Part shown: piece after piece, positions 1 to 22,690 of the stretch
Numbering within the stretch: position 1 is the stretch's first letter
Layout: each line of letters opens with the position of its first letter
Origin: Methanomassiliicoccaceae archaeon
GTDB lineage: Archaea; Thermoplasmatota; Thermoplasmata; Methanomassiliicoccales; Methanomethylophilaceae
Assembly: GCA_009784745.1 (NCBI GenBank)
Contig: WQXR01000001.1
Location: 1-35,862 of the forward strand
DNA length: 35,862 nucleotides
Direction of reading: 5' to 3'
Made by a program: the position numbers and the translations under genes
Notes under the pieces: model-generated
The model's input: only the letters and a program-made list of their open reading frames with translations
Told to the model about the DNA's origin: nothing
Database searches by the model: none

Positions 1-266
1 AGCGCCGCTGCCGCTTCCATATGGAATTTGCTGACGTTCAGGAAATAACTTCCGGAAACATCTTCAACTCTTGCTCTCCACATCGGTTCCTCGTCGCTTC
101 CGGTGTTCTGTTTCTCAAGAAGCACCCCCGCGATCAGAACACGGTTCAGTTTCGTTCCCAGAGGGCTCACCAGATATGCGGGCGATTTTTCTTCCTCCCC
201 TTTCTTCTCAAGGGACGATGAATTCAATTCTCCCGCGAAAACTCTCCATGCTGTCTCACGGAACAT
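1..266 (-). CDS. Partial CDS (first 88 codons, runs off left edge): RPA-associated OB-fold protein (RPA32-like / COG3390-type)
   Basis: Absent from the ORF track because it has no stop in the window. My translation of the minus strand from ATG 266..264 is MFRETAWRVFAGELNSSSLEKKGEEEKSPAYLVSPLGTKLNRVLIAGVLLEKQNTGSDEEPMWRARVEDVSGSYFLNVSKFHMEAAAA, open to position 1. The start overlaps the rpa stop (TGATG). The N-terminal pattern resembles RPA partner proteins encoded downstream of archaeal rpa genes; this is recalled, not searched. Confidence 0.6.
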   Translation of the reverse strand, partial: MFRETAWRVFAGELNSSSLEKKGEEEKSPAYLVSPLGTKLNRVLIAGVLLEKQNTGSDEEPMWRARVEDVSGSYFLNVSKFHMEAAAA

Positions 267-1582
267 CAAAGCGATCCCTCCACTTTCTCCATGAGTTCCT
301 CAGCCTCTTTCTTTACGTCCGTGAACGTTCTTTCGATGCTGTTTGCGATCATCATAGGTCCGTAATCATCACTTAATACGTTACCTGAGGCGGCAACGTT
401 CATGAGCAGTACCTTCTCTTCCATTGCTTTCCTGACCGCTTCCTGATCGCCGTTCTCTTTTGCTATCGCGATCGCCTGTTCCAATGAGACGGATGTCAAT
501 GATTCTGTGGCCTCTTTGCTGACGACCGTCGTCAAAGCACCGGAGCCGTCGTCAATGATAACTTTCATCCTGAGATCCGGTATCGCATCCACCTTGCCGT
601 GTGATGTGCATTCATCACCAACTATCGAACGGTTGCATTCCGGACATCTTTTTATCAATCCGCTTCCGGTCCTTACGTCGACGATCGTTCCGGCGATCAT
701 CACATCCAGTCCTCCTCCCGTTCTGAATATGTCGGCAACGCTCCTTTTGCTTATGCCGCTTTGAATGTTCGAGAATACTTCGTCAACGCGGCTTATCTCG
801 CACATGTCGCCGAAGTTCAGCGACGGAACTCCTCTCCATGATCTGATGTAAGCGTTCTTGGCGCATATTGTCTCATCTTCTTTGAAATCAAATTCATTCC
901 ACGCGGTGAATTGGATCTTTCCCGTATCATCGGCAATATGTCCGGAAAATACCGTTCTCGGTTCGCCTTTCGCCGCTATCGTCTTCGGTTCGACGGAAAG
1001 CAATTTTCCCGTTACCGTGACATTTCCGAGGCCGTCACGCAGTTCTGATATCTTCACATCCGAGGAATACGATATTTTGCGTTCAGGCATTGCTAGTACA
1101 ATATCAGAAAGTTCGGCGACGCTTCGCTCGCCGAAGTTCAGTTGCGCTTTATCATTCCATTTCTTTCCGTACGCGTTCTTGAAGTTGTATGTCTCTCCCT
1201 TGACCAACTCAAAATTACCGATGTTCCAGACGGTAAAGGGTATAGTACCCGTGTCGTCTCCGAGGATACCGGAGAATATGGTCCTCGGGGTACCTCTTGC
1301 GGTGATCTGTTTCTCTTCTATGTAAACAACTCTGGCGACAAGATCAACGCTCTTTTCGTCACCGGTCATCTCATTTATCTTTTTCACGATCGATGCGGCG
1401 GATACGAACATCGATGTTTCGTCGCCGTACTTCCTTTTGATGCTTTTGACCGCAGCATCAGGCGAAACCTTGTACACATTAAGGTATGTGTTCAGTTCCT
1501 CGATCAATTCCTCTTCGCTCACTTTTTCTCCGACCGCCTTTTTCAGTTCTTCAATATGAGGCGTTAGTTCTTCCTTTATCAT
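266..1582 (-). CDS. rpa: Replication protein A (ssDNA-binding protein, multiple OB folds plus zinc finger)
   Basis: 438-aa ORF. Repeated OB-fold-like segments (ARG.PRTIFSGILGDDTG.I.FT.WN and AKGEPRTVFSGHIADDTGKIQFTAWN). CCCH zinc motif CPECNRSIVGDECTSH. GGAGGT lies 8-13 nt upstream of the ATG. Confidence 0.85.
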   Translation of the reverse strand: MIKEELTPHIEELKKAVGEKVSEEELIEELNTYLNVYKVSPDAAVKSIKRKYGDETSMFVSAASIVKKINEMTGDEKSVDLVARVVYIEEKQITARGTPRTIFSGILGDDTGTIPFTVWNIGNFELVKGETYNFKNAYGKKWNDKAQLNFGERSVAELSDIVLAMPERKISYSSDVKISELRDGLGNVTVTGKLLSVEPKTIAAKGEPRTVFSGHIADDTGKIQFTAWNEFDFKEDETICAKNAYIRSWRGVPSLNFGDMCEISRVDEVFSNIQSGISKRSVADIFRTGGGLDVMIAGTIVDVRTGSGLIKRCPECNRSIVGDECTSHGKVDAIPDLRMKVIIDDGSGALTTVVSKEATESLTSVSLEQAIAIAKENGDQEAVRKAMEEKVLLMNVAASGNVLSDDYGPMMIANSIERTFTDVKKEAEELMEKVEGSL

Positions 1583-1641
1583 TTTTCATCGACCTCCGCG
1601 GCCTGAGCCGCCGTTGTCTGTTTTACAAATGTTGCCTATAG

Positions 1642-1649
1642 TTAATAAA
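1642..1649 (-). promoter_or_regulatory. TATA-like box (TTTATTAA on minus strand) for rpa
   Basis: A/T octamer about 60 nt upstream of the rpa ATG, 7 nt downstream of the 35-nt element. Implies a ~37-nt 5' UTR containing the GGAGGT Shine-Dalgarno sequence. Confidence 0.45.
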
Positions 1650-1656
1650 CAATTCC

Positions 1657-1691
1657 GAGGGGTGACCGAAAGTACCTCCGTTTCCGGTGGA
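1657..1691 (-). repeat. 35-nt conserved upstream element, copy A (minus-strand reading TCCACCGGAAACGGAGGTACTTTCGGTCACCCCTC)
   Basis: 34/35 identical to 10203..10237 read on the plus strand. Flanking sequence is unrelated. Same orientation relative to the downstream gene in both copies. Confidence 0.9.
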
Positions 1692-1750
1692 AAAATAATA
1701 TACGAGATCGTCAAAAATTACGTTATGACGGTCATTTCAATGAAAGAACA

Positions 1751-2137
1751 TCAACGATTCCGTTTCCAGATGTCTTCGTCAAGATCATCGTAAACGGAAT
1801 CGGATACCTCTTCCGCTTTCTTCGGGTCTGCGGAGTTCATCAACTCCGCTATCCTTTCCCTTCTGAACAGCCAATAGTGTATCCTCCATTCGCGGCCGTC
1901 GTAAAGTGTTGTTTCTTCTCTTTCCGTTGTTAGAATTCCGGTATCTTCGAGCATATAGAACGCGTCCCTGTCCTCCGGTTCCAAGATATTATCTATTATC
2001 CGATCGGAATAACCGAAGAAATTAAGGATATGCTGCGCCAAAGAGTATGCTTGTTCCTCATCCATACCTTTGTTCTCTATGCTGTTCTGTATCGCCGATG
2101 TAAGATCCTCAACGGTCAGTGTTACTTTTGCAGTCAT
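1751..2137 (-). CDS. Hypothetical small acidic protein (128 aa)
   Basis: Clean ORF filling the gap between serA and the rpa promoter. Acidic C-terminus. No motif I can assign. Confidence 0.55.
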   Translation of the reverse strand: MTAKVTLTVEDLTSAIQNSIENKGMDEEQAYSLAQHILNFFGYSDRIIDNILEPEDRDAFYMLEDTGILTTEREETTLYDGREWRIHYWLFRRERIAELMNSADPKKAEEVSDSVYDDLDEDIWKRNR

Positions 2138-2204
2138 ATCGGAACGTTCCTTCGGTGTACCCGTATAGTTCGGGATTTATTAACCTTTCACGTGCGCGCA
2201 CAAC

Positions 2205-3785
2205 TCATTTCACTATCTTTATGTATCTCGTATCGTCGAATCCCGTTGCGGCGCTTATCTTTTTTATTATATTCTCAGGAATGTCGTGGTCAACGCCCAT
2301 CAGCATTATCGCCATTCCTTTTTCTGTTTCTCGGCCAACGGTCATCTGACCTATGTTTATACCATTCTCTCCCAGTATCTTACCCACGGAACCTATTATT
2401 CCCGGCAGGTCCTTGTATCTCGCCACCAGTATGTTGGTGTTCATCGGTATCTCGAAACAATAGTTGTCCATTCCTATCATGCGCGGGGTGTGTGCGAACA
2501 CCGTTCCGCGCACAGTTCTCGTATCTTTTCCGGATGTTATTGTTACCGTTACCATGTTCGAATATACAGGAGAATCCTCGTTCTTTGATTCCGTTACCTT
2601 GATGTTCTTGCTTTTTGTTATCGATTCGGCGTTTATCATGTTGACACCGTCGCCGACGATGTTCTTCATCACGCCTATCAGAACGGACAATGTTATCGTT
2701 TTTGTGTTCTTTAACGCAATTTCGCCGCTGCATGTAACGTCTATTTTGTCTATGGGTCTCATGCCGTTCATCTGGTGTATACATATTCCCAAACGCTCAG
2801 CGAGCGGTATGTACTCGGCCAGCGACGGGTCCAGTTGGCCGCGGGGCGCGTTTATTGCGTTCGCGATGATGTTCTCGCGCAGATACATTATCACATTCTC
2901 CGCAATATCCACTGATACTTTCTCCTGTGCTTCCACAGTGCTCGCGCCGAGGTGCGGCGTTGTTATCAGGTTGTCCAGATCAAGCAGTTTTGACCCTTCC
3001 TTCAAAGGTTCGTCAACGAACACATCGAAGGCTGCGCCTGCTATCACTTTGTTCTTGAGTGCTTCGTAAAGATCATCCTCGTTCACGATGCCTCCGCGTG
3101 CAACGTTGATGAGCAAAGCATTCTTCTTCATCATCTTGAACTGCGGCATCGATATCATGTTCTTCGTTTCCGGAAGAAGCGGTGTGTGTATCGTCATGAT
3201 ATCAGAATTTTTCAGAACATCGTCCAATGTTGTCAATCTTACGGAAAGGTCGTCCGCGACATCCTTCGGAAGGTACGGATCGTAACCTATCATTGTCATA
3301 CCGAATGATCTGGCACGTTTCGCTATCTCGCCGCCCACTCTTCCTACGCCGATTATTCCAAGCGTCTTTCCGTATAATTCGATACCCGTGAACTTGCTTC
3401 TTTTCCATTCTCCCTTGTGCACGGATGCATGCGCCCAAGGTATCATCCTCGCAAGGGACATGATCATCGCCAGCGAATGTTCCGCCGCGGAGATGATATT
3501 CGCCGCCGGAGTATTCATCACCAGTATCCCTTTCTGCGTTGCATACGGTACATCGACGTTATCGACGCCTACTCCCGCCCTTCCGATAACTCGTAATTTT
3601 TTACCGGAATCGATGACCTTTTTTGTTACTGTTGTACCGGATCTGATGATCAGGCCGTCGTATTCTCCTATTATGTTGCACAATTCATCCTCATTCAGTC
3701 CGGGCCTTACATCAACGGGTATCCCCGACACCGTCAATATCTTAAGGCCCTCTTCCGACAGAGGGTCGGAAACAAGCAGCTTCAT
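2205..3785 (-). CDS. serA: D-3-phosphoglycerate dehydrogenase (long form with C-terminal regulatory ACT-like region)
   Basis: NAD-binding motif GIIGVGRVGGEIA, 2-hydroxyacid dehydrogenase core, ~526 aa. The ORF opens at 3791, but the ATG at 3785 gives an ATGA overlap with the serC stop and lies 6 nt after GGAGGA, so 3785 is preferred. Confidence 0.9.
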   Translation of the reverse strand: MKLLVSDPLSEEGLKILTVSGIPVDVRPGLNEDELCNIIGEYDGLIIRSGTTVTKKVIDSGKKLRVIGRAGVGVDNVDVPYATQKGILVMNTPAANIISAAEHSLAMIMSLARMIPWAHASVHKGEWKRSKFTGIELYGKTLGIIGVGRVGGEIAKRARSFGMTMIGYDPYLPKDVADDLSVRLTTLDDVLKNSDIMTIHTPLLPETKNMISMPQFKMMKKNALLINVARGGIVNEDDLYEALKNKVIAGAAFDVFVDEPLKEGSKLLDLDNLITTPHLGASTVEAQEKVSVDIAENVIMYLRENIIANAINAPRGQLDPSLAEYIPLAERLGICIHQMNGMRPIDKIDVTCSGEIALKNTKTITLSVLIGVMKNIVGDGVNMINAESITKSKNIKVTESKNEDSPVYSNMVTVTITSGKDTRTVRGTVFAHTPRMIGMDNYCFEIPMNTNILVARYKDLPGIIGSVGKILGENGINIGQMTVGRETEKGMAIMLMGVDHDIPENIIKKISAATGFDDTRYIKIVK

Positions 3786-4855
3786 TTGCATTCCTCCAGT
3801 GTTTCGTCCATAACTTTCAGCAGTTCTTTTATCCTTTTCGGTGTGAGATCCCCCATATGACCGATCCTGAACGTCTGTTGCTTCACTTCCCCGTAACCGT
3901 TGGATATCTCATAACCTTTTGTCTTCAGTATAGAGTGGAACTTATCAAAATCCAAACCTCCGCGGTTGATCACTCCGATGGTATCGGACATGTATCCTTC
4001 CTCCGGAAGCATTCCGTTAAGACCTTTTGACCATTTTCTCACAAGTTCGGCCATTTCTTTATGTCTGCGATATCTTGCGTCCATTCCTTCCGATACCATT
4101 CTTTCTAATTGGAATTCGAGAGCATACATCATCGATACGGGAGGGGTGGTGAGAGCATAATTCTCATCGTTGTTCTTTTTCAGTTTTATGAGGTCGGTGT
4201 AGAAACCTCTGTTCTCAACTTCTTTTGCTTTTTTCATAAGTTTTTCGGAGACAGCAATGAACGCTAACCCCGGCGGTAACGCCAACGCTTTCTGAGAACC
4301 GAATATCAACGCATCCGGTTCATTCTTCTTTATATGCAAGTTCGTACCGGCAACGGATGTTACGCCGTCCACGAATATCAGCGGATCGTTCCGTTCTCTT
4401 ATCTTTTCCGTAAGGTCCGGAAGAGAACTTAACACACCGGTGGATGATTCGTTGCTTACGAAGTGCACCGCTTCGATCTTTTCGTCAATGGCATTCTCAA
4501 TATGTTCCGGTCTTATTGCTTTACCCCACGGCACGCGTACTTCCTTCACATTCTTTCCGTTGAGTTTAGATATCTCTATCCAGCGGTCGCCGAACGAACC
4601 GTTCGTCAATCCAAGCACATTACTTTTCACTCCGTTCCTTATTGCTCCTTCCAGGAACACGGATGCGGAACCTCCTACCATGAAGATGTCCATGTCCGTA
4701 TCCAGCAACTTCCTGAATTTCTCAAGGATGGATCCGTGGAGCACCTTGTATTCCTTGGATCGGTGCGTTATCATGGGTTTGGTCATTGCGTTAAGGACCT
4801 CGGGCTCAACATTTACCGGGCCGACTGTGAAAAGTTTCCTGCTCAATATGTTCAC
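3782..4855 (-). CDS. serC: Class V PLP aminotransferase, probable archaeal-type phosphoserine aminotransferase
   Basis: Class V fold pattern with PLP-lysine context FGSQKALALPPG. Translationally coupled to serA. The specific substrate is inferred from context only. Confidence 0.7.
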   Translation of the reverse strand: MNILSRKLFTVGPVNVEPEVLNAMTKPMITHRSKEYKVLHGSILEKFRKLLDTDMDIFMVGGSASVFLEGAIRNGVKSNVLGLTNGSFGDRWIEISKLNGKNVKEVRVPWGKAIRPEHIENAIDEKIEAVHFVSNESSTGVLSSLPDLTEKIRERNDPLIFVDGVTSVAGTNLHIKKNEPDALIFGSQKALALPPGLAFIAVSEKLMKKAKEVENRGFYTDLIKLKKNNDENYALTTPPVSMMYALEFQLERMVSEGMDARYRRHKEMAELVRKWSKGLNGMLPEEGYMSDTIGVINRGGLDFDKFHSILKTKGYEISNGYGEVKQQTFRIGHMGDLTPKRIKELLKVMDETLEECK

Positions 4856-4973
4856 TCTCAGTTCGCGTCCGTACGCGCAAGCGCACGGTAGGATGTTCCC
4901 TTGAATGCTATGTCCAATATAAAACTTAGACTGACCGCTGATGTTACATTATCGTCGGATGCGTGACGGGAGA

Positions 4974-6152
4974 TCATAATTTTGAGAGCGCTTTCTTTAT
5001 GCTTTCGATCCCTCTGATTATGTTATCCTCAGATGTTGCGTACGACAATCTGAAGAAACCCTCGCCTGCCGGACCGAATGACCGTCCCGGCGTTATTGCG
5101 ACGTGCGCCTCTTTCATAAGATAAGTAGCCAGATCTTCAGATGTTATCTTGTGTTCGTACTTCGGGAACAGATAGAATGCACCTTCTGGGCGGTTGCATT
5201 CCACTCCTTTTATGTCGTTCAGGAGATCCAACGCAAGGTCCCTGCGCTTCCTGAATTCCTTTATCATTTTCATTCTCTCCGTCTGCGGTCCCTTCAATGC
5301 TTCGACCGCGGCCGGCTGTGTGAATGATGTACAGCACGTTATCGAATGAGTTTGAAGTTTATTCACCGCCGCAATATCCTTTTCCGGGGCGACCATCCAT
5401 CCGAGTCTCCATCCGGTCATTGCATATGTTTTTGATAATCCCGATATCGTAAAGGTGCGGTCGAACATACCGTCAAATGACGCTATGGAGACGTGTTCTC
5501 CTTCATAGATTATATGTTCATATATCTCATCGGACAAAACAAGTATGTCCTTTTCGATGCAAAGATCGGCAATGCCCTTCAGTGTTTCGCGCGGCATTAC
5601 CGATCCTGTGGGATTTGACGGTGAGTTAAGGATAAGCATTTTTGTTCTCTTCGTTATAGCGGCGGCCATCATATCCGCGCTCATCCTGAAATTATCTTCA
5701 AACCTCGTAGGAACGTGAACAGCCTTCGCTCCGGCCGCTCTGATGCACGCTTCGTACGATACCCACGCCGGATCAGGAAGTATAACTTCATCTCCGGGAT
5801 CAAGATACGCTAAAGCGATCATGAACAACGCCTGTTTCGTAGGCGTAACGAGTACATTCTTCGCTGTGCAGTTTATTTTATTATCCTGAACTGTCCTTTC
5901 GGCTATCGCCTTTCTTAATTCGGGTATCCCCGTTGACGGAGTGTAATGCGTGAATCCTGAGCTCAGCGATCTTATGCACGCCTGTTTTATGTTGTCCGGT
6001 GTATCGAAATCCGGTTCTCCCATTGAAAAGGAGATTATCTCAATGCCTTCCTGTTTCAACTGACTGACAAGGTTCGCTATCGCCACCGTACCGGATTCCG
6101 GAACGTCCATCAGTCTTTCGGAGAACCTCTTCTTGGAAAACATTGCTACCAC
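4974..6152 (-). CDS. aspC: Class I/II PLP aminotransferase (aspartate aminotransferase-like)
   Basis: Motifs NSPSNPTG and SGLSKTYAMTGWRLGW (PLP lysine). 392 aa. Confidence 0.85.
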   Translation of the reverse strand: MVAMFSKKRFSERLMDVPESGTVAIANLVSQLKQEGIEIISFSMGEPDFDTPDNIKQACIRSLSSGFTHYTPSTGIPELRKAIAERTVQDNKINCTAKNVLVTPTKQALFMIALAYLDPGDEVILPDPAWVSYEACIRAAGAKAVHVPTRFEDNFRMSADMMAAAITKRTKMLILNSPSNPTGSVMPRETLKGIADLCIEKDILVLSDEIYEHIIYEGEHVSIASFDGMFDRTFTISGLSKTYAMTGWRLGWMVAPEKDIAAVNKLQTHSITCCTSFTQPAAVEALKGPQTERMKMIKEFRKRRDLALDLLNDIKGVECNRPEGAFYLFPKYEHKITSEDLATYLMKEAHVAITPGRSFGPAGEGFFRLSYATSEDNIIRGIESIKKALSKL

Positions 6153-6185
6153 CTTAACACTCTCGTATAGATATGATTTGCGTCA

Positions 6186-7259
6186 TCACGTCATAAGATC
6201 CGTGAAATTACCTGTTCTCAGGCTGTCCCTGAATTCTTTCGCTATACGTCCTCCGGTGCTCATTCCCGGATATATCAGATCGGCGTACGGCGAACCCGAT
6301 ATGAACGGATTCGTTCCGGCAACGATCCTCGTTGATATCTCGAACAATTTGAATTCCAGTTTGTCCGTTACTATCGTTTCCAGACAGAACGGCCCCCACA
6401 TGCCTCCGAACAGTTCATAGGATCGGTTGACGATACGTTCGGCCATGTCGAACGCCTTCGGAAGTAATGATTCTCTGATGACAACAGGAATATTGCCGGT
6501 AACGACGAACGACGGATACAATCCGTGCTTCTTCAGGTCGTCGTACGATCCCATTTTGTATAACTCATCAATATTGCTCTCATCCCTTCTGTCTATTGAC
6601 AGAAGTTCTATCGTTCCGCCTCTTGCTACCTTGTATCCGTCCTCCTTGAACGGTGAATAGAAGAAATGCAAGTAATATCTCGTTCCGAGCGCATATTCCT
6701 GTATTGTATAGGGTTGTGTGTTATCAATGTACATCTTGAAATCAGGGTAATCCTTTGCGATGAAGAATCCTCTTCCTCCTTTGGCGCCGTGATATTTCAC
6801 CAGAACAGGTTCGTTTATCTCTCTTGCGTCGGTGTATATGCGCGGCATCGTTACACCTGCGGATGTTATCCACTGTCTTTCCAGATCGCGGTCGGATTCC
6901 CATTGCAGAACTGCGCGGTTGCAGTAAGCGGGCACTTCAAGATCCTCGAATTTCTTCGGTCCCATGTATTCGACGAACGATCCGTGCGGAATGATTATTG
7001 CATTCTTGTCGTGAAGTTCTCCCGTTCTTTCCTCTATTTCATCAAGATCCTTGTACTCGATTATCTCATCGGGCTTCGCCAACGGAAAGGCATCATAATA
7101 TTTCGTGTTATGAGTGACCGTCATTCCCAACGTCTTAAAACCCGCTTTGCGTGCTCCGTGAAATATTTGCAATGAAGAATGAGAACAAAGCGTCGCTATT
7201 GTGATATTGTCTTTGTCATAACCGCCGAGAATGGAATCGATCTTCCTTTTAGGGACCAT
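6186..7259 (-). CDS. purP: 5-formaminoimidazole-4-carboxamide ribonucleotide (FAICAR) synthetase, ATP-grasp, formate-dependent
   Basis: N-terminus IATLCSHSSLQIFHGARKAGFKT and ATP-grasp core typical of archaeal PurP. 357 aa. A TATA-like TTTAAATGCATAAAAA lies ~25-30 nt upstream. Confidence 0.88.
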   Translation of the reverse strand: MVPKRKIDSILGGYDKDNITIATLCSHSSLQIFHGARKAGFKTLGMTVTHNTKYYDAFPLAKPDEIIEYKDLDEIEERTGELHDKNAIIIPHGSFVEYMGPKKFEDLEVPAYCNRAVLQWESDRDLERQWITSAGVTMPRIYTDAREINEPVLVKYHGAKGGRGFFIAKDYPDFKMYIDNTQPYTIQEYALGTRYYLHFFYSPFKEDGYKVARGGTIELLSIDRRDESNIDELYKMGSYDDLKKHGLYPSFVVTGNIPVVIRESLLPKAFDMAERIVNRSYELFGGMWGPFCLETIVTDKLEFKLFEISTRIVAGTNPFISGSPYADLIYPGMSTGGRIAKEFRDSLRTGNFTDLMT

Positions 7260-7352
7260 ACGCTATGATTGTTTTTATGCATTTAAACCTTGGGTCGATT
7301 TTTGTTTGAAAACTCTGTTTTGTGATGAAAGAGATGCGTTCGAAATGACGTA

Positions 7353-10118
7353 TCACTTCTGTGACCGCAGATATCTCATCCTGCGGTTCGGGCTCACAGC
7401 CTTCCTGTTCAGACGGAGTGATGTGTAATCATATTCTGCGTGATATATCGCCGCGACGCTCTTTGCCATGCGTTCACGCTTCGCTTTCTCATCGATCTCG
7501 CCCGTAAGATTCGCTTTTGCGTGTTTGCCCCATATCACAAGCAGCGACGGTAATACCAATACAGAACCCATGTAACCGAATGCTATCGCTAACGCCGTGA
7601 TTATACCGAACTGGTACATTGGTAATATCTTTGAAAAGCCCATGACGCTGAAACCGGCCACCGTTGTCAATGCGGCAGCGAAAACTCCCTTTCCCGTTTC
7701 GCGTGTAGCCTTTATTATGGCCTCTTTTTCATTGAGACCGTTCTTCACAAGTTCCGTCACAAAACGATGCGATATGTGAATTCCGTACGTAACGCCCATG
7801 CCTACGGCAAGCGACGCTATCGTTAACGTCATAACGTTAAGAGGCATGTTCATCAGCGCCATCGTACCCCAGACCATTATCACTGAGATCAACGTCGGAA
7901 TCGTTGCCATTATTCCGAGAAGCGGACTTCTGTCAACATAATACATAAATATCGTCAGTACAAGAACGACGAACAATATCGTAACGAACAGCGATGTCAT
8001 CTGACTGCTGTTCATCGCCTTCGCGTTGGACGCCATTATTATGAATTGACCCGTTGTCACATACTCCGAACCGTTCTCGCCTATCGGTGCGCATGCATCA
8101 TTGATACGATCTTTCATTTCCACAATGGCATCGTTATCGCCTTCGAGTTCCGTTGTCATGTGAAGAACTATCCTTGTCACGGGATCTCCTTCGTTGAACC
8201 CTACGTATGACGATACTGCTGCCTTGAGTGCGGGTGCCGACATCACTGCCTTCAGTATGTCCAGATATCCTTGTGTCACCACCGGTATGATCGGCTTTAG
8301 GGTGCCGTCCGCTTTGAACACCTGGTCGTATACCTCGCTGAACGACATAAGGCCAATGAACGGAATATCAATATCCGGCACCGCCGCTCCGTATCTTGTG
8401 TTGAATTCAGCCATCGCCGTTCCGATGTGGTCCGCGACCACGTCACCAGGCGGTCCGACGCCTTTGTACGCCAATCCCCTGATCTTATTGGCCTCGGTGG
8501 CGGCGCTCATATTCGCCAAAGAATCCTGAATTGCTTTTATTACGTCTATATTCCATCCGTCATCGTATACCAGCACGCTTGTTGTGCTTGTCGTGACGGA
8601 ATGATTATCGTCCATGTACGTCAGTATATCATGCGCTTCCGTCCCTTCCGGAATGAAATCGTACATGTTGAAATTGTAAGCGAGGTTCGTTGCGCTGACA
8701 CCGAACAATGCAATAATAACTGCAACAACGCCAAGAACGGCCCACGGACTTCTGGCGGCCATCTTGCCGCCCGCACCCGCTATCACGCTGATGACGTCCT
8801 CTTTTTCCGTTCTCTTGTAGCGTTTCGCTTCATCGCTCCCTTCTTTACGGTCACGGAGTATCTGTACCGCCGGAATAAGGAGGAGCATCACACCGAACGC
8901 ACATACTATTCCGATGGCGCACATGACACCGAAGTCGGCCAATGCGGACATTGATGATGTTAAGTATGACAGGAACGCAATTGCTGTTGTCACTGTCGCT
9001 AATATCAACGCCTGACCGACGGAACCCATCATCTTTTCGGTTGCTTCCGATGACGAATTACCGTTCTTCCTTTCCTCTCTGTATCTGAACACCAGATGCA
9101 GACTGTAATCTATCCCCAATGTAAGTACCAATATCGGTACCGCTATCGCTATAGTTGTTATCTCTATACCAACGAGAGTAGCAAGACCGAATGTCCAAAT
9201 AACTGCAACGAACAGTCCCGCGAGGCCGATGAGTGTGTCAACGGCGTCGCGATATATCAACAGCAAAAGCAGTATCATCACGACAACGGTTATCGGCAAC
9301 AACATGGCGATATCGTTCTGCGCCATTTCCCCGATGCCGCTCATCATCGTCATCATTCCGGCCACCCGTATCTTGGTGCCGTCCGGATGCGAAGCGTTGA
9401 AATCGTTAGCAACGTCTATAACATCATATTCGAACCCCTTCTGACCGCGGTCTATCTTTTCCAGACTTGAGTCCATTACCATAACGGAAACGATGCATCC
9501 TTTCGCCGATACCGCTGCATCATCAAAGTCGTTGGTCAGCAGTGATCTCAGCATCGCCGCTTCCGGATCTGCAAGGAATGCAGAGGCAACACCCTTGATC
9601 GCAGCGTCATTCGACAGTCCGATCGTGAATATCAATCTCTCATAGTACACCACCAGATCCGCTGACGGATCAGGGAGAGGGGGGAGCAGACCTCCGCTCG
9701 CTGCTATGATCATTTCTGCGAGCGGTTTTGATATCACGGAAACGGGACTGAGAACGTTGAATCCAGGTATGTTTCCGTCATAACGTTCTTTGTTATCCGG
9801 ATCATTGGCATCGGTGTATTCCATCCCGGCCAATCCTTTTTCATAGTTGAGGACGTCAATGAACGCCTCTTTTGTGAAGATATCTCCTCCGGAGTCCACC
9901 ATGCTCATCACCGATGCGGTGGAAGTGAACGCCTCCGTGACAACGGATGACGCTCTGGTCATCTCGTTATCGGGCATGAATCTTGACTGGTCCATGTCAA
10001 AGGACGGAGGGCTCGCCGCTATGATGCCCAACGATGCTGCCGTTATGATAAGCAGTACCGCAAGAGGAACGACAGGCTTTTTGACCATGCTCGCTCCCAG
10101 TCTCTTCATGAACTCCAT
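7353..10118 (-). CDS. MMPL / RND-superfamily membrane exporter
   Basis: 921 aa with two blocks of ~6 TM helices, each preceded by a large soluble loop. Internal duplication of the SSD-like TM bundle is typical of MMPL/RND exporters. Substrate unknown. Confidence 0.8.
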   Translation of the reverse strand: MEFMKRLGASMVKKPVVPLAVLLIITAASLGIIAASPPSFDMDQSRFMPDNEMTRASSVVTEAFTSTASVMSMVDSGGDIFTKEAFIDVLNYEKGLAGMEYTDANDPDNKERYDGNIPGFNVLSPVSVISKPLAEMIIAASGGLLPPLPDPSADLVVYYERLIFTIGLSNDAAIKGVASAFLADPEAAMLRSLLTNDFDDAAVSAKGCIVSVMVMDSSLEKIDRGQKGFEYDVIDVANDFNASHPDGTKIRVAGMMTMMSGIGEMAQNDIAMLLPITVVVMILLLLLIYRDAVDTLIGLAGLFVAVIWTFGLATLVGIEITTIAIAVPILVLTLGIDYSLHLVFRYREERKNGNSSSEATEKMMGSVGQALILATVTTAIAFLSYLTSSMSALADFGVMCAIGIVCAFGVMLLLIPAVQILRDRKEGSDEAKRYKRTEKEDVISVIAGAGGKMAARSPWAVLGVVAVIIALFGVSATNLAYNFNMYDFIPEGTEAHDILTYMDDNHSVTTSTTSVLVYDDGWNIDVIKAIQDSLANMSAATEANKIRGLAYKGVGPPGDVVADHIGTAMAEFNTRYGAAVPDIDIPFIGLMSFSEVYDQVFKADGTLKPIIPVVTQGYLDILKAVMSAPALKAAVSSYVGFNEGDPVTRIVLHMTTELEGDNDAIVEMKDRINDACAPIGENGSEYVTTGQFIIMASNAKAMNSSQMTSLFVTILFVVLVLTIFMYYVDRSPLLGIMATIPTLISVIMVWGTMALMNMPLNVMTLTIASLAVGMGVTYGIHISHRFVTELVKNGLNEKEAIIKATRETGKGVFAAALTTVAGFSVMGFSKILPMYQFGIITALAIAFGYMGSVLVLPSLLVIWGKHAKANLTGEIDEKAKRERMAKSVAAIYHAEYDYTSLRLNRKAVSPNRRMRYLRSQK

Positions 10119-10202
10119 TCTTTCATCCCCGTAAGGTAAACAGTGATTTCCACTTTAGTATATACGGTTACCGTTCGGTGGTCAGGAAATGACCGGACAA
10201 CC

Positions 10203-10237
10203 TCCACCGGAAACGGAGGTACTTTCGGTCATCCCTC
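10203..10237 (+). repeat. 35-nt conserved upstream element, copy B (TCCACCGGAAACGGAGGTACTTTCGGTCATCCCTC)
   Basis: 34/35 identical to the reverse complement of 1657..1691. Lies in the divergent MMPL/xpd intergenic region, oriented toward xpd. Confidence 0.9.
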
Positions 10238-10244
10238 CACACCG

Positions 10245-10252
10245 TTATTATA
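10245..10252 (+). promoter_or_regulatory. TATA-like box (TTATTATA) for xpd
   Basis: Starts 7 nt after the 35-nt element. Its centre is ~26 nt upstream of the GTG start at 10275, consistent with a leaderless transcript. Confidence 0.45.
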
Positions 10253-10274: not shown

Positions 10275-12149
10275 GTGAACCTGTTCCCGTACACGCCAAG
10301 AAGTTCGCAGAATGAATTCACGGAATTCGTTAACAGCTGCGTTAACAAAGGGATACCATGCATCATCGAATCCGGGACCGGAACGGGAAAGACGATCTGT
10401 TCGCTGGCCGGAGCATTGCCGTATGTGCTGGAAAAAGGAAAAAAACTGGTATACCTGACAAGAACGGCGTCACAGCAGAAACAAGCAATTCTTGAATTGA
10501 GAAAGATCTCCGAGATAAGGAAGATATTTGCCATGGGGATCCAAGGACGAAGCGCATCAACGTGTCCGATGATAAGAACGGACCCGGAACTGATGTCCGG
10601 TTCTCCTGAGGAACTATCCAAATTCTGTTCGGAATTCAAAAAACGGACGGGTACGGACAGAGGATGCAGATTCTACGACAACATATTGAGAACGGATGTG
10701 AACGAGCACACGGAATTCTGCAGATCGGCCATGCCGACCGCGGATGAATTCACGGATCGTATGACGTCTTTGGAATTGTGTCCGTATGAGATGATGAAAC
10801 GTCTCATACACAACGCGGACGTTGTCATTGCGCCGTATCATTTCCTGTTCGTTCCGGGAACAAGAGAACGTTTTCTGGGATGGATGAACGTTCCGTTAAG
10901 GAATATAGTTATGATCGTGGACGAAGCGCACAATTTACCCGATCACCTGAGAGAGGTGATGACCTCCCGATATACGATGCGCGCTCTGGACCTCGCTGAA
11001 AAAGAGGCGATCGACAGGAACGATCCGGAAGTAAGCAACGGGATATCGGCAACGGATGTCATGAACGCGTTGAGAAAACTGATATACCAAGCGAAGGAAG
11101 AGTATCTGGTGGACGAGGACGGTCTTTTACCGCCGTACTTCATCGAGGACGGGCTGATGGAAGAACTTAATGTTACGTCGGTAAAGATAAGGACAATTTG
11201 TAAAACAATGATAGAGCATGGTGAGGTGATCGCCGAGCAGAAGAAAATGAACGGAAAACTTCCCAGATCATATCTCAGATCACTGGGTATGTTCATCCTG
11301 TTCTGGTTGGACTCTGAGGATGAGGTTTACGTGAAACTCATCATCGGCGAGGATACCTCATTAGAAGCATTCTGCATGGACCCGTATGAGGCCGCTGAAC
11401 CGTTACGGATATGTCATTCGTCAATTCACATGTCGGGAACGCTCGAACCGTTATCGGAATATCAGAACGTATTGGGATTGGAGGACGCGGAACTGAGATG
11501 TTTCCCATCTCCTTTCGATCCCTGTAACCTTATGACAATTCACGCGACCGACGTTACAACGAAGTACGAAGAAATGAAACAGGATGCATCGATGATACCG
11601 AGAATGGAGGATCATTTGATAAGAACGATCAACTCGGTGAAAAAGAACACGGCGGTGTTCTTTCCCTCATATTCGTTAATGGATGTAATGGTAAAGGACG
11701 GCATAATATCAAGAACGGAAAGAAAGGTGTTCACAGAAAGGAAAGGAATGTCGAACACGGAACACCAGAACATGCTGGATTCGTTCAGATCATCCGGTGA
11801 CGGTATTCTTTTTGCGGTTTCCGGCGGAAGGATAAGCGAAGGCATAGATTTTCCCGGGAAGGATATGGAATTGGCGATATTGGTGGGAATGCCGTTCTCA
11901 AGGCCCGGAGCGAAGCAGAACGCATTGATACGTTACTACGACATACGTTCAGGGAACGGATGGGACCATGCGGTCATCTCACCGGCAACAAGGAAGATGA
12001 GGCAATCCATCGGCCGTCTGATAAGATCGGAGAACGATATCGGCGCAGCCGTGATACTTGATAAAAGAGCGGCTGCGTATCAGTTACTTTCATCAAGACC
12101 TTCTGATAACATTCCCAATGCGGTCCGTATGTTCTTCGATAGGCATTGA
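10275..12149 (+). CDS. xpd: XPD/Rad3-family (DinG-like) Fe-S DNA helicase
   Basis: N-terminus FPYTPRSSQ, Walker A ESGTGTGKT, DEAH box (IVDEAHNL), four Cys in the Fe-S insertion (STCP, CSEF, CRFY, CPYE). GTG start. Confidence 0.85.
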   Translation: MNLFPYTPRSSQNEFTEFVNSCVNKGIPCIIESGTGTGKTICSLAGALPYVLEKGKKLVYLTRTASQQKQAILELRKISEIRKIFAMGIQGRSASTCPMIRTDPELMSGSPEELSKFCSEFKKRTGTDRGCRFYDNILRTDVNEHTEFCRSAMPTADEFTDRMTSLELCPYEMMKRLIHNADVVIAPYHFLFVPGTRERFLGWMNVPLRNIVMIVDEAHNLPDHLREVMTSRYTMRALDLAEKEAIDRNDPEVSNGISATDVMNALRKLIYQAKEEYLVDEDGLLPPYFIEDGLMEELNVTSVKIRTICKTMIEHGEVIAEQKKMNGKLPRSYLRSLGMFILFWLDSEDEVYVKLIIGEDTSLEAFCMDPYEAAEPLRICHSSIHMSGTLEPLSEYQNVLGLEDAELRCFPSPFDPCNLMTIHATDVTTKYEEMKQDASMIPRMEDHLIRTINSVKKNTAVFFPSYSLMDVMVKDGIISRTERKVFTERKGMSNTEHQNMLDSFRSSGDGILFAVSGGRISEGIDFPGKDMELAILVGMPFSRPGAKQNALIRYYDIRSGNGWDHAVISPATRKMRQSIGRLIRSENDIGAAVILDKRAAAYQLLSSRPSDNIPNAVRMFFDRH

Positions 12150-14311: not shown

Positions 14312-15709
14312 ATGATACCGGAGAACAAATGTTCCAGATGTCCGCTTTCCGAGTTCAGGACGAAGATAGTGATGCCTGACGGGAACGAAAATTCCAACAT
14401 TGTTCTGGTAGGCGAGGCACCAGGAGAAACGGAAGATCTTACCGGAAGACCGTTCGTCGGAAGATCGGGAAAATTGCTGGAAAAGATAATGAAAGAAGAA
14501 GGCATCGAAAGATCGGACGTTCTTATCACGAATACAGTAAAATGTCGTCCTCCGGGCAATCGTGATCCTACGAAAGAAGAGATGGACGCATGCAGGCCGT
14601 TCCTTGAGCATGAGTTATCAGGCAAAAGGGTGGTGGTCGGTCTCGGAAGATCAGCGTGCCGCATTTTGATCGGATACGAAGGAAAGATGTCCGACATCGT
14701 CAACAAGGAAACAACGATAACGATCAGCGGAAAAGAGATAACTTTTCTGCCGTCGTATCACCCGGCAGCATGCATTTACAACAGCGCATCAAAAGAGGAA
14801 TTGAAAAGGACGATGAGGATCCTCAGAGAAAGGTACATGGGCGGTGCAGAGCACCGCCCGAAACAGCGGAAGATATGCGATGATCCGATCGCAAAAGATG
14901 TTACGGACGCGAAGAACGTTTTTACGGCGGACGCTGCAGCAATAGACTGGAATGACGTCTCCGGCATGATGATAGACATGGACGGAACGGTGTACAAAGG
15001 TGACAACGTCATACACGGAGCACCGGAATTCATTGAAAGAGTGAAGAAAAGGAAAATTCCCTTTGTTTTTCTGACGAACAATTCTTCTTCGGACAGAGAA
15101 CATTATCTCAGTAAATTAACGAAGATGGGTTTCAATGTGAGCATCGATAATATATTAACGTCAACAACAGCAACGATATCGTACCTTTTGAAACATCATC
15201 CCGGAAGAACAGTGTATCCGATCGGAACACAAAGATTCGTTAACGAGATAAGAGCAAAAGGTGTAAGGATAGTTGAGAAGGATCCGGACATCGTCCTTCT
15301 GGCGTTCGACACTTCGATAACTTATGAAAAAATTAACAACGCATATCATTTCATAAAGAACGGTTCAATGTTCGTAGCAACACATCCTGATGATCTCTGT
15401 CCAACGGAACACGGATATGATGTTGATATCGGAGCATTCATAAGATTCCTTGAATCAATGACCGGAGTGAGAACAACGGTCATAGGAAAACCGAACACGC
15501 TGATGACGGAAATGGCATCTGAGATAATGAACGTACCGATGAAAAAGATGGTGATGATCGGTGATCGTCTTTACACGGACATGAGAATGGCGTCGGATGC
15601 CGGTATCAGGTCAGTAATGGTGCTGACCGGCGAAGCAAGAAGGGAAGATATCAGCGGCGATATACATCCGACGATGGTCGTGAACTCTGTGAACGACCTT
15701 ATCCTTTGA
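14312..15709 (+). CDS. Fusion protein: family-4 uracil-DNA glycosylase (N-terminal) + HAD-IIA NagD/UmpH-like phosphatase (C-terminal)
   Basis: N-terminal ~185 aa: CSRC, GEAPG, FVGRSG, VKCRPPGNRDP, DACRPF, SYHPAA (4Fe-4S UDG family 4). C-terminal ~250 aa: DMDGTVY (motif I), FLTNNS (motif II), GKP, IGDRLYTDM (motif IV). Single uninterrupted 465-aa frame. Confidence 0.8.
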   Translation: MIPENKCSRCPLSEFRTKIVMPDGNENSNIVLVGEAPGETEDLTGRPFVGRSGKLLEKIMKEEGIERSDVLITNTVKCRPPGNRDPTKEEMDACRPFLEHELSGKRVVVGLGRSACRILIGYEGKMSDIVNKETTITISGKEITFLPSYHPAACIYNSASKEELKRTMRILRERYMGGAEHRPKQRKICDDPIAKDVTDAKNVFTADAAAIDWNDVSGMMIDMDGTVYKGDNVIHGAPEFIERVKKRKIPFVFLTNNSSSDREHYLSKLTKMGFNVSIDNILTSTTATISYLLKHHPGRTVYPIGTQRFVNEIRAKGVRIVEKDPDIVLLAFDTSITYEKINNAYHFIKNGSMFVATHPDDLCPTEHGYDVDIGAFIRFLESMTGVRTTVIGKPNTLMTEMASEIMNVPMKKMVMIGDRLYTDMRMASDAGIRSVMVLTGEARREDISGDIHPTMVVNSVNDLIL

Positions 15710-18800: not shown

Positions 18801-19441
18801 CCGTGAATCTGAGAGCGATAGACGATTACGACGAGAAGAAGGAAAGACATACTCGTCTTTCAGCTGACGTCGACAAAATGAACGTACGTATCGACGAATT
18901 GACAACACTGATGGATTCCATAAACAAAGAGAAGAAAGGACTGTTCATGGAAGTGTACGACGGTGTTAACGCTAATTTCAGAGAAATATACGCAGAACTG
19001 TCGGACGGCGGCGAAGCGTACATGAAATTAGAGAATGAAGAACTGCCGTTTGACGGGGGATTACTGATAAACGCGAAACCGAAGAACGGTAAGATGTTAA
19101 GGCTGGACGCACTGAGCGGCGGTGAAAAGAGTTTAACAGCATTGGCGTTCATATTCGCGATACAGGAACTGCAGCCTTCGCCGTTGTATGTTTTGGACGA
19201 GGTGGACATGTTCTTGGATTCCGTGAATGCCGAGATGGTAGCAAAACGCGTAAAGAAGAGCTCACTGAAGGCACAGTTCGTTCAGGTCTCTTTAAGGAAA
19301 GTTACATTGGCGTTAGCGGAACACCTGATAGGTGTGACGCGTGAACGTACGGGAATAAGCAAAATAATTATACAGCCGGACCTTGCCGAAGTATCTAAGT
19401 ACGAGGATGAGGCGGCAAAGAACAAGAAGGATGGGAATTGA
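15854..19441 (+). CDS. smc: SMC chromosome segregation ATPase
   Basis: 1195 aa. N-terminal Walker A GPNGSGKSN, long coiled coils, hinge, C-terminal signature LSGGEKSLTALAFIFAIQ and Walker B LYVLDEVD. Confidence 0.95.
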   Translation: MGLYLKQIELENFKSFGGKLTIPLMEGYLAVTGPNGSGKSNISDAILFVLGPKSSKAIRAGKLTDLIFDGGQSKAKADFTKVSLVFDNKDRMIPWDDDTVKLTRLVRLAQDGDNYSSYFYVNERKSSMTEFDNLLARARISAEGYNLVQQGDVTRIVAMGNLERRRILDSISGIASFDADLESAGKEKAETEQNIERINIIIKELDATLEQLEKDMVEARKYLEAQSRLEEAKAQMVHRQLENAVAEADGIRAQLLSSQNEMESLKQKKSKLIDKVEELAVRLRDKEKEIEDKAGPEYKEIKNKIQLALMEKAKAEARIENIIDDISEQNDSIELNKERLAETEKELQTCVNSSLSVKNDMDSKKEMLDNANKALNELRKNISSAGGELKAIQDRLQDTESKIEIKAEEQQQCEIRVAKAESAKGTAETNVASYEEQLQNADFEIKDAEWNLKEFREQSGSADLQQFTSKIMNARKKEAELEKQESELNMIISKLSADYESLKAEKRVTERVQQSEGVSAMLELRDKGQMKGIHGTVMELATVDKEFETALSVAAGGKMQAVIVDDDQVAEEAINFLKKNGYGRVTFLPLSKMREGKPRAKAIMIEKETSGYAIDLIKFNPKYRVAFWYALGDTLVVNTMSEARRLMGDVRIVTKAGELIEASGAMVGGTVNTAATFKFGPASESKMNSAGTELRNATASLDALKQMLRDIRQEIRNYDDEMRSVSTGAAGVQGKIAGYETQLNILRQNRKKASDDLNAEKQKLAELQKEMNNASDELKKLTDQLTSLKDERTRLRKSLVDIAPEGLQEKIQTTQDDVIRLQSEANDLAMEYASLLAEQDAIESVKSGLLNDINAANSKISSKMNEKKAEDEKIERSTTDMNGLKRIENDFESKLGNLREQRDNILQDKSRTEADSSNLTSAITAKLAVLTGYEAKIEISDEIVKQLKEEVSSLTIHVNDVPSEEEIKRTIKSCETVMAKIGSVNLRAIDDYDEKKERHTRLSADVDKMNVRIDELTTLMDSINKEKKGLFMEVYDGVNANFREIYAELSDGGEAYMKLENEELPFDGGLLINAKPKNGKMLRLDALSGGEKSLTALAFIFAIQELQPSPLYVLDEVDMFLDSVNAEMVAKRVKKSSLKAQFVQVSLRKVTLALAEHLIGVTRERTGISKIIIQPDLAEVSKYEDEAAKNKKDGN

Positions 19442-20320: not shown

Positions 20321-20321
20321 G

Positions 20322-20872: not shown

Positions 20873-20927
20873 CGCATCCACCTATGCACGTACGCACAGG
20901 GACAAGAATATTTGATAATAGTAAACA

Positions 20928-20935
20928 TTTATATA
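20928..20935 (+). promoter_or_regulatory. TATA box TTTATATA (with purine/A-rich BRE-like AGTAAACA upstream) for the thermosome gene
   Basis: Consensus archaeal TATA 54-61 nt upstream of the ATG at 20989. GGAGG Shine-Dalgarno at 20974..20978. Confidence 0.65.
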
Positions 20936-20988
20936 GAAGAACTAACTTTAGCCAAACAAGGTTCCAATCTAATGGAGGTTTGAAGACT

Positions 20989-22629: not shown

Positions 22630-22637
22630 AACGAAAC

Positions 22638-22657
22638 GGGGGTCAAACCCCATTTTT
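22638..22657 (+). terminator. Hairpin GGGG-TCAAA-CCCC followed by T5
   Basis: Begins 9 nt after the thermosome stop. Stem-loop plus oligo-T. Confidence 0.55.
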
Positions 22658-22659
22658 AA

Positions 22660-22667: not shown

Positions 22668-22690
22668 TCAACTAACGGAGGATGAACTGT

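Follow-up and report, generated by a model that had tools for sequence, protein, structure and literature searches.

A repair-gene promoter motif of Methanomethylophilaceae, its near-identical copies before rpa and xpd, and the 8.5-kb inversion between them

The 35,862-nt stretch examined here (the window; positions 1 to 35,862, forward strand, of contig WQXR01000001.1 in GenBank assembly GCA_009784745.1, from a Methanomassiliicoccaceae archaeon) contains two nearly identical 35-nt elements, one in the promoter of rpa and one in the promoter of xpd. The 3' part of each element is a motif conserved in sequence and position before a specific set of DNA repair and recombination genes in Methanomethylophilaceae. 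The copies in the window mark the end points of an 8.5-kb inversion, and within-genome homogenisation of the elements is found in relatives. We consider it likely that the two copies are paralogous promoter elements whose core is a putative site for a regulon factor, that gene conversion homogenised them, and that a crossover between them inverted the block of genes that they enclose.

The rpa copy (TCCACCGGAAACGGAGGTACTTTCGGTCACCCCTC, 1657..1691, minus strand) and the xpd copy (TCCACCGGAAACGGAGGTACTTTCGGTCATCCCTC, 10203..10237, plus strand) are identical at 34/35 positions and differ by a C to T change at element position 30. Direct reading confirmed this match, which an earlier note on this DNA had reported together with the orientation of both copies toward their downstream genes and an A/T octamer 7 nt after each; these details are likewise correct. 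A scan of the window with up to three mismatches recovered the two 35-mers only (chance expectation 0.00), and an inverted-repeat search ranked the pair as the best inverted repeat of the window, at 97% against 71-86% complementarity for the runners-up. The octamers are the predicted TATA boxes: TTTATTAA for rpa (read 1649..1642, that is 1642..1649 on the minus strand), in a region orthologous to the rpa promoters of relatives, and TTATTATA for xpd (10245..10252, plus strand). On the rpa side the 7-nt spacer between the 35-mer and the predicted TATA box (1650-1656, minus strand) occupies the position of the TFB recognition element (BRE). The downstream genes are rpa (266..1582, minus strand; 438 aa), which encodes replication protein A, a single-stranded DNA-binding protein with OB folds and NCBIfam ssDNA-binding protein/RPA matches, and xpd (10275..12149, plus strand; 624 aa), a Rad3/XPD-family helicase with DEAD_2/HBB/Helicase_C_2/rad3 domains. 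The GTG start codon of xpd lies 22 nt downstream of the predicted TATA box, and this distance suggests a leaderless mRNA.

Comparison with relatives does not favour the earlier view of the 35-mer as the functional unit. The conserved unit is about 19 nt long and is accompanied by upstream repeats that vary among lineages. The 3' 19 nt or so of the 35-mer (GGTACTTTCGGTCAYCCCT) correspond to the motif GGYAC-TTTCGG-NN-ACCCC, which is found family-wide in Methanomethylophilaceae. De novo enrichment of 6-mers, which presupposes no pattern, recovered TTTCGG from 37/80 rpa upstream regions, against 2.5 expected, and ATTCGG from 24/80. Leaving aside the TATA box and the ribosome-binding site, TTTCGG, ATTCGG, ACTTTC and ACCCCC are the top enriched 6-mers at rpa, and they are concentrated at -95 to -76 relative to the ATG. 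Alignment anchored on TTTCGG gives the consensus G-G-Y-A-C-TTTCGG-N-S-A-C-CCC-C, followed 9-10 nt further on by TTTTATA/TTTATTA. The position matrix shows that flanks not used for selection are also conserved (G-G-Y-A-C on the 5' side, A-C and C on the 3' side). An A stands at -2 in 33/46 sites and TTC is invariant, with a minority of sites reading ATTC instead of TTTC. Positions -30 to -6 relative to TTTCGG show no family-wide conservation.

The rpa promoters of relatives served to build a 19-nt position weight matrix (PWM), which was applied to both strands at a threshold of at least 17 bits. In 1.36 Mb of DNA from relatives it recovered 41/82 rpa promoters, 8/47 xpd promoters and two other sites. 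In the window, the core motif of the rpa promoter (GGTACTTTCGGTCACCCCT, 1658..1676, minus strand) scores 26.6 bits and that of the xpd promoter (GGTACTTTCGGTCATCCCT, 10218..10236, plus strand) scores 23.5 bits with the same rpa-derived matrix. The spacing from the core to the predicted TATA box is fixed at 9-10 nt in both rpa and xpd promoters, and the distance from the motif to the start of xpd is 51-53 nt in every relative that has the motif. In several lineages (L002, L014, L015 and L089; L numbers designate the loci of relatives) the stop codon of the gene upstream of xpd, which encodes a DUF6015 protein, forms part of the motif (GTAA|TTTCGG or GTAG|TTTCGG). Where xpd lacks the motif, the gene abuts or overlaps the DUF6015 gene. 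Additional (A/T)TTCGG repeats occur upstream of the core, and in 22/24 cases their spacing is 9-10 bp, about one helical turn. RPA homologues assign the window to Methanomassiliicoccales, and its organism is a methanogen of the Methanomethylophilaceae type; the nearest homologues, at up to 74% identity, come from termite-gut 'Methanomassiliicoccaceae' metagenome-assembled genomes, Methanoplasma and Methanomethylophilaceae. Orthologous promoters keep the position and orientation of the motif relative to TATA and BRE across this deep divergence (RPA identity 41-74%), the behaviour of an archaeal transcription-factor site.

The motif is not confined to rpa and xpd. JGI metagenomes were scanned with the exact pattern TTCGGNNACCCCN{8,12}TTTTATA, which matched at least 120 stretches, and the matches were re-scored with the PWM, including positions outside the search pattern. 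Among the matches listed, the high-scoring sites precede rpa, xpd and a number of new genes: the Holliday-junction resolvase gene hjc (L122, L126/L162), rmuC (L128/L149), a TPR-DEAD/Helicase_C protein gene (L154), and genes for RhuM (L101), a double zinc-ribbon protein (L159) and a 194-aa membrane-like protein (L142). Overall, hjc promoters with the motif were found in at least five genomes, and this Hjc family belongs to Methanomethylophilaceae. Separately retrieved hjc promoters also carry it, as AGTTTCGGGTATTTTCGGGGACCTCCCCC...CTTAATATA in Methanoplasma sp. (L211) and as ATTCGGAG-ATTCGGGCAG-ATTCGGTTATCCCCC-ggaattcgt-CTTATATA, with three tandem ATTCGG repeats, in the complete genome BRNA1 (L213). 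On the archaeal contig L142, radA is preceded by ACTTTCGGTCAATTCGGTGACCCCCC-aatttgc-CTTATATA (20.3 bits). The start codon follows the TATA box by 20-25 nt in most motif-bearing genes. A PWM scan of a further 0.89 Mb added only hjc, radA, one rpa site, the xpd site of L088 and one stray match. The motif thus recurs before related genes and is rare elsewhere, with two off-target sites in 1.36 Mb and one in 0.89 Mb.

The regulon also appears selective, and a general label of DNA metabolism does not describe it, because other maintenance and stress genes of the window lack the motif: it was found neither at the UDG-HAD fusion gene (14312-15709, plus strand) nor at the genes in 15854-20822 and 20884-26132 (both plus strand). 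The motif-free genes of the window include those for SMC, an unannotated 292-aa open reading frame (ORF; possibly ScpA) and ScpB, as well as thermosome, GrpE, DnaK and DnaJ. The proposal of the earlier note, that a dedicated factor acts on a shared upstream site in a replication/repair regulon, gains support from this comparative evidence, since 19 nt are held at a fixed distance from TATA and occur also before hjc, radA, rmuC and a helicase gene. The search of relatives and tabulation of positions that the note had called for placed the motif in orthologous promoters and revealed neither a scatter of the kind produced by a miniature inverted-repeat transposable element (MITE) nor an absence from relatives.

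In the mechanism that we propose, the proximal ~19 nt (GGTAC-TTTCGG-TC-AYCCC), which abut the BRE position, would be the site of a transcription factor. This factor would control a DNA repair and recombination regulon in Methanomethylophilaceae that comprises rpa, hjc, radA and, in some lineages, xpd, as well as rmuC, a helicase gene and some others. That the site lies immediately 5' of BRE/TATA, and that (A/T)TTCGG is frequently repeated in tandem every 9-10 bp, suggests that the factor binds cooperatively along one side of the DNA helix and activates transcription by assisting the recruitment of TFB/TBP. Protein binding, activation and an inducing signal such as DNA damage or replication stress are what we infer from this arrangement. 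In the lineage of the window the distal repeat is replaced by a box (TTCCACCGGAAACGR) that resembles an origin recognition box (ORB) and is kept in L088, the closest relative found. The inverted rpa and xpd copies, about 8.5 kb apart, would then have exchanged sequence by gene conversion, and a crossover inside the element would have inverted the whole block from DUF6015 to MMPL.

Homogenisation within genomes offers an explanation for the length of the identical stretch. The rpa and xpd elements of L009 are identical at 41/47 positions and those of L011 at 31/34, the latter identity extending through BRE and TATA, while in L001, L002, L014, L015 and L042 the two promoters share only a core of 14-20 nt. 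Over the 32 nt upstream of the core, 21 positions are identical within the window and 27 within L009; between genomes the mean is 8.8 and the maximum 14, and averages for orthologous pairs are 9-11. The extended repeat therefore appears to have arisen by gene conversion or promoter copying, as a case of concerted evolution of inverted paralogous elements. Accordingly the 34/35 identity would reflect gene conversion and crossover between the copies and not 35 nt of shared function.

Two further loci contain duplicated motifs. In L011 (196-1098) two copies lie between the DUF6015 gene and xpd: an older one at 705 (19.1 bits) that abuts the DUF6015 stop codon, and a second about 450 nt further on that is identical at 31/34 positions to the rpa promoter of the same genome, BRE and TATA included. 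The second appears to be a duplicate of the rpa promoter that was recently inserted before xpd. In L142 two regulon promoters 1 kb apart (5786-5830 and 6812-6860), which precede the gene for the 194-aa protein and radA, are identical at about 40/45 positions. This pair is a further instance of within-genome homogenisation, here in direct orientation.

Inverted repeats are known to yield inversions by homologous recombination, with concerted evolution of the repeats. In all 46 relatives that have both genes, the order is xpd (minus), DUF6015 (minus), serA, two aminotransferase genes, purP, MMPL where present (minus) and rpa (plus). Only two sequences, the window and L005 (an ENA contig from the same organism), were seen to have the DUF6015-to-MMPL block flipped, and an exact look-up of the DUF6015 protein returned the same contig alone. 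The inverted segment (1692..10202, 8.5 kb) holds the genes for DUF6015, a serA-type dehydrogenase, two aminotransferases, purP and an MMPL transporter with its own promoter, and the 35-mers sit exactly at both breakpoints. The outer flanks have remained syntenic, with carS and a phosphoribosyltransferase gene (prt) beyond xpd and an rpa-associated gene beyond rpa. The flip has brought the DUF6015 gene (1751..2137, minus strand; 128 aa) to a position before rpa and made MMPL divergent from xpd. All relatives with both genes have DUF6015 immediately upstream of xpd and rpa divergent from the block. Repeats at the breakpoints, exchanged interior flanks and exterior synteny are thus all present, as in other repeat-mediated inversions, which share with this one the copies at both breakpoints, the swapped interior flanks and the homogenisation within a genome. 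The difference is that the repeats here are regulatory elements of 35-47 nt and not insertion sequence elements or rRNA operons.

The L088 locus places the inversion in sequence. Its DUF6015 protein is 95% identical to that of the window, and it retains the ancestral order of DUF6015 followed by xpd. Its xpd promoter reads TTCCACCGGAAACGAAGGTACTTTCGGTCAACCCCCC-gcattg-TTATTATA and includes a 35-mer-like element, which indicates that the long element predates the inversion. The flank on the rpa side of the window matches the xpd-side flank of L088 at 26/32 positions, against 22/32 for the xpd side of the window itself, as a crossover inside the element predicts. At element position 30 the rpa copy of the window has C and the xpd copy T; the rpa promoters of relatives mostly read AC-CCC, and most, though not all, xpd promoters have T or A. 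Taken together, the junctions point to a lineage-specific crossover within the element that inverted the DUF6015-to-MMPL block. The earlier description of the 35-mer as a discrete module amid unrelated flanks is right about the flanks; the conclusion drawn from them overlooks that the copies are the end points of the inversion.

The junction between DUF6015 and xpd is apparently prone to rearrangement. In L090 (1012-2460) an AAA_14/DUF4143 ATPase gene follows a degenerate motif behind DUF6015. L089 (4420-4454) has a different upstream context, and the end of that contig is Illumina adapter sequence (AGATCGGAAGAGC...).

Several points weigh against this interpretation or limit its reach. The motif is absent from rpa in about a third of the family members and from xpd in most of them. 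The PWM is derived from rpa promoters and is hence partly circular for rpa sites; the sites at xpd, hjc and radA are independent of it. TATA boxes, BRE positions and leaderless transcripts are predicted from spacing, the scan of the host organism covers the 35.9 kb of the window alone, and the metagenome gene list, which comes from an exact-match pattern, is incomplete and biased. The places of radA, rmuC and the helicase gene in the regulon each have the backing of only one or two contigs. That the extended repeat came first and the crossover second is read from L009 and L088. Finally, the similarity within genomes could in part reflect co-evolution with a factor of long footprint, an alternative that fails to explain the genomes that share the core only.

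The factor itself could be an Orc1/Cdc6-family protein, namely the fast-evolving Orc1/Cdc6.2 paralogue of Methanomassiliicoccales, acting as Orc1-2 does in Sulfolobales. We regard this as a possible but doubtful identification, the best placed of the alternatives. In Sulfolobales, a damage-response element with the hexamer 5'-A(N)TTTC-3' and the 20-bp consensus AATAGTTTCRGWDTACTCWS is bound by Orc1-2 just upstream of BRE (PMC5817253, PMC6061795, PMC12490963). The core TA(C/G)TTTCGG of the present motif resembles this S. islandicus consensus in its A(N)TTTC, which reads ACTTTC in the window, and the two share the word TA-N-TTTC-R-G (here TA[C/G]TTTCGG). Both motifs are non-palindromic, lie just 5' of BRE/TATA and precede DNA repair and transaction genes, and many of the target transcripts in Sulfolobales are leaderless. 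Methanomassiliicoccales have a second, divergent Orc1/Cdc6 that has been placed near Crenarchaeota. The statement of the earlier note that no described archaeal motif matches is consequently too strong, as the core resembles the Sulfolobales element and the 5' half of the 35-mer resembles ORB (PMC6061795, PMC5817253, PMC4153887).

The two elements also differ. Sulfolobales are Thermoproteota, whereas the present organisms are Thermoplasmatota. The 3' end of the hexamer is here 19-20 nt away from TATA, and its predicted position, -55 to -50, is about 10 nt, or one helical turn, further from TATA than the Sulfolobus position of -44 to -39 that abuts BRE; the predicted position -45 to -41 is occupied by the ACCCC block. 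For the Sulfolobales element, neither this obligatory ACCCC nor repeats in tandem, frequent here at a spacing of 9-10 bp, are described. The sets of genes differ as well, with ups, ced and tfb3 there and rpa, hjc, radA and xpd here.

The distal part of the 35-mer supplies the second line of resemblance. A lineage-specific ORB-like box, TCCACCGGAAACGGAGG, occupies 1675..1691 (minus strand) in the rpa copy, where it holds an inverted imperfect half-site, CCGGAAAC, and the same box is present at 10203..10219 (plus strand) in the xpd copy. With the preceding T's it reads TTCCACCGGAAACGG in the window and TTCCACCGGAAACGAA in L088, and it matches 14/16 of the first positions of the archaeal ORB consensus CTTCCAGTGGAAACGAAAGGGGT (PMC4153887); the L088 form may be compared with the archaeal ORB TTCCAGTGGAAACGAA. 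Between the window and L088 the 35-mer is conserved at 31/35 positions amid adjoining spacers that can barely be aligned, so the distal box is probably functional in this sublineage. A PWM made from the first 16 positions of ten published Methanomassiliicoccales ORBs was run over the 1.36 Mb on both strands, and four of its six best matches fall a short distance 5' of rpa or xpd (window, L088, L065 and L068). The L065 and L068 boxes (TTTCCACTGGAAGGGGTCAC) belong to rpa promoters without the TTTCGG core and are better ORB-like boxes than that of the window.

Relative to the ORB and mini-ORB sites of origins, for which the Methanomassiliicoccales consensus is GTTCCAGTGGAAATGG-AGGGGTA (PMC4153887, PMC1904270), the 5' half of the 35-mer (TTCCACCGGAAACGGAGG) retains the invariant TTCC...GAA words. 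In place of the ORB dyad TTCCA-N-TGGAA plus GGGGT, TTCC and GGAAAC are present, the arm reads CGGAA and not TGGAA, and GGTAC stands where the G-string of a true ORB would be. The full ORB consensus gave no match at up to three mismatches. The boxes are found in promoters and not at an origin, and only in some lineages. They form no cluster around an AT-rich unwinding element: two boxes stand 8.5 kb apart in promoters, with no orc1/cdc6 gene nearby or elsewhere in the window. In the retrieved loci no orc1/cdc6 gene was detected by signature or by tblastn, for which the query was an unvalidated S. solfataricus Orc1-1 sequence. Further reservations are that the box is lineage-specific and lies outside the family-wide motif, that an inverted imperfect half-site is an alternative reading of it, and that the likeness was recognised only in hindsight. 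For each of the two systems one defining feature was tested and is missing here, and for this reason the motif is not a demonstrated Orc1-2 element or ORB.

We put forward only as a speculative suggestion, and with more doubt than confidence, that the motif is an Orc1/Cdc6.2-type operator and that the Orc1-2 damage response is an ancient archaeal circuit present also in Thermoplasmatota methanogens. If this were true, the circuit would control the core recombination genes rpa, radA, hjc and xpd, and the ORB-like boxes in rpa/xpd promoters would connect paralogues of replication initiators with the control of repair genes, either as a relic or as a link still at work.

Some ORB-like sequences lie apart from the motif. 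About 75-95 nt upstream of rpa, L065 (366-384) and L068 (7084-7102) have an almost canonical ORB-like box flanked on each side by G-rich runs (CCCCACCTCCGTTTCCACTGGAAGGGGTCAC), and L066 and L068 have arrays of AACTTAAGTT palindromes just further upstream. These boxes and arrays in L065, L066 and L068 may be sites for Orc1/Cdc6 or another regulator, or may belong to an origin-proximal region. Outside promoters, the best match of the ORB PWM is at 6522 in L058.

The DUF6015 protein is an improbable candidate for the factor, considerably weaker than Orc1/Cdc6. In this reading a small winged-helix protein would act on a motif beside its own gene. Its gene precedes xpd in every relative that has both, and its stop codon overlaps the motif in the four lineages named above. 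The AlphaFold model has a winged-helix topology, albeit at low confidence (pLDDT 65). The best Foldseek matches are TFIIE-alpha/Tfa1/TFE-alpha (E = 4e-3, TM 0.48), accompanied by archaeal winged-helix regulators, and some JGI records label the protein as an ArsR-family regulator. These fold matches are weak, however, and sequence and profile searches of DUF6015 against the PDB gave no match to any solved structure. Genomes with no motif in the rpa promoter (such as L063-L075 and L083-L086) carry the gene equally. Moreover, the protein is 70-95% identical across the order, with an invariant block of about 50 residues (LNFFGYSDRIIDNILEPEDRDAFYMLED...LYDGREWRIHYW) and an acidic aromatic C-terminal tail (SVYDDLPDDIW), and such conservation is more in keeping with a partner of conserved machinery than with a regulator that recognises specific sites. 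In eukaryotes TFIIE recruits the XPD-containing TFIIH, and on the basis of the structural model DUF6015 may be a partner of XPD.

Other archaeal activators offer a parallel in architecture. Like the sites of Ptr2 (Methanocaldococcus), the ARA box and the ArnR box (PMC5817253), the present motif lies directly upstream of BRE/TATA, occurs as two or more sites in phase and presumably acts through recruitment of TFB/TBP, while its sequence is unrelated to theirs. By applying the principle of PMC5817253, we interpret it as a putative archaeal upstream activating-type site that defines a regulon. The sole literature match for TTTCGG motifs was the optimal site of FL11 (Lrp/FFRP), CCGAAA[AAT/ATT]TTTCGG (PMC2715240). 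It shares the half-site word TTTCGG, but FL11 sites are palindromes of 13-15 bp with a 3-nt centre, whereas the present motif consists of direct repeats plus ACCCC with no CCGAAA at that spacing; the FL11 palindrome was rejected because of this unlike architecture.

The SOS box, bound by LexA, is a short motif before genes for a single-stranded DNA-binding protein, recombinase, resolvase and helicase, and small ORFs and mobile-element genes have been recruited to it. The analogy with the present regulon is functional only. The kinds of genes are the same, small ORFs and mobile-element genes included, but the SOS box is a palindromic repressor operator that overlaps the promoter, and here direct repeats lie upstream of an archaeal core promoter.

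Two groups of motif-bearing genes recall these recruited members. TnpB/OrfB_IS605 genes (with a Cas12f-like TNB domain) in L185, L196, L208 (392-394 aa) and L127 have the motif, a TATA box and a leaderless start, which suggests that TnpB mobile-element nucleases have been placed under, or have captured, host repair-gene control. In three termite-gut contigs, a double-repeat motif and TATA drive an ORF of about 26 aa behind a long structured leader (L112, about 7.7-7.9 kb, minus strand; L206, 1227-1440; L092, 1698-1862). Its pattern, R-V/I-R-I-T-V-x-x-G-x-I-x-x-V-I-D-L-x-I-P, resembles the small damage-induced peptides of bacterial SOS regulons.

It is very unlikely that the 35-mer is itself a mobile or MITE-like repeat, or a promoter cassette that a transposon has spread, and not a resident regulatory site. 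The TnpB genes of those four metagenome contigs carry the same motif and TATA, and L011 apparently gained a second, rpa-promoter-like copy before xpd, as a mobile cassette might produce. The window nevertheless holds only two copies in 35.9 kb, with none further at up to three mismatches, and both are oriented as promoter elements; relatives have the motif at the same position and orientation in orthologous promoters; and there are no terminal repeats or target duplications. A 22-mer across the junction of the two halves of the element had no exact match in the JGI metagenomes, which also indicates that no near-identical strain is present there. Many copies in varied contexts with terminal repeats were not found, and a MITE or dispersed repeat was rejected.

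Just as implausible is that the inverted repeats form a programmed reversible switch or that the inversion is an assembly artefact: the segment between them would on flipping swap the upstream context of two promoters, an arrangement that resembles invertible switches, and a 35-nt repeat can confuse short-k assemblers, but no recombinase gene lies in or beside the segment, the core promoters remain with their genes so that a flip gives no on/off switching, relatives show a fixed ancestral order, k = 141 exceeds the repeat length, and the window and the public contig L005 (an ENA k141 assembly, though possibly the same assembly) agree in orientation. A programmed invertible switch was rejected on the lack of a recombinase and of promoter switching and on the single orientation in the window and L005.

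Whether archaea of the Euryarchaeota type have a dedicated transcriptional response of repair genes is a long-standing question. To our knowledge, the Orc1-2 system of Sulfolobales is the only archaeal DNA-repair circuit worked out so far, and our literature search found no description of the present motif or of a Methanomassiliicoccales repair regulon. One defined motif here links rpa, radA, hjc, xpd, rmuC and a helicase gene across a family of host-associated methanogens with cultivated strains among its members. The locus also illustrates, in a natural setting, how regulatory elements can serve as substrates of recombination: its short paralogous promoter elements appear both to have undergone concerted evolution and to have mediated an 8.5 kb inversion that rewired gene neighbourhoods, uncoupling DUF6015 from xpd and setting it before rpa.

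Several smaller features surround the two promoters in the window. The 10-mer GAAATGACCG occurs exactly twice, at 1729-1738 (minus strand; 1729..1738) and 10186-10195 (plus strand; 10186..10195), and it lies 37 nt from the 35-mer at rpa and 7 nt at xpd, all as first reported. The functional significance that had been attached to this 10-mer, with a phasing of three helical turns, finds no support in the promoters of relatives, which lack it, that of the closest relative L088 included. On the rpa side it is within a local palindrome (ATGACCGTCAT, 1725-1735) and on the xpd side within GGTCA-GGAAA-TGACC (10180-10194). The TGACCG of this region is the reverse complement of CGGTCA in the core motif. 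The 10-mers may serve as an auxiliary site, may be left over from an earlier conversion tract or may have arisen by chance. A proposed CCG-GAAA-CGG mini-hairpin in the element proved no more stable than shuffled sequences (z = +0.3, 0.0 and +0.4), and Rfam at gathering thresholds returned tRNA-Ser only, so that the element is covered by no known RNA family.

The 5' untranslated region of rpa contains a structure of its own. A short GC hairpin (GCGGC-loop-GCCGC; 1592-1611, minus strand) stands directly before the Shine-Dalgarno sequence GGAGGT. It is conserved at the same place in relatives, where a conserved CGAT(A) run then extends up to the ATG, and GGAGGTCGAT words are the most enriched 6-mers upstream of rpa. 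This hairpin may be a translational control element.

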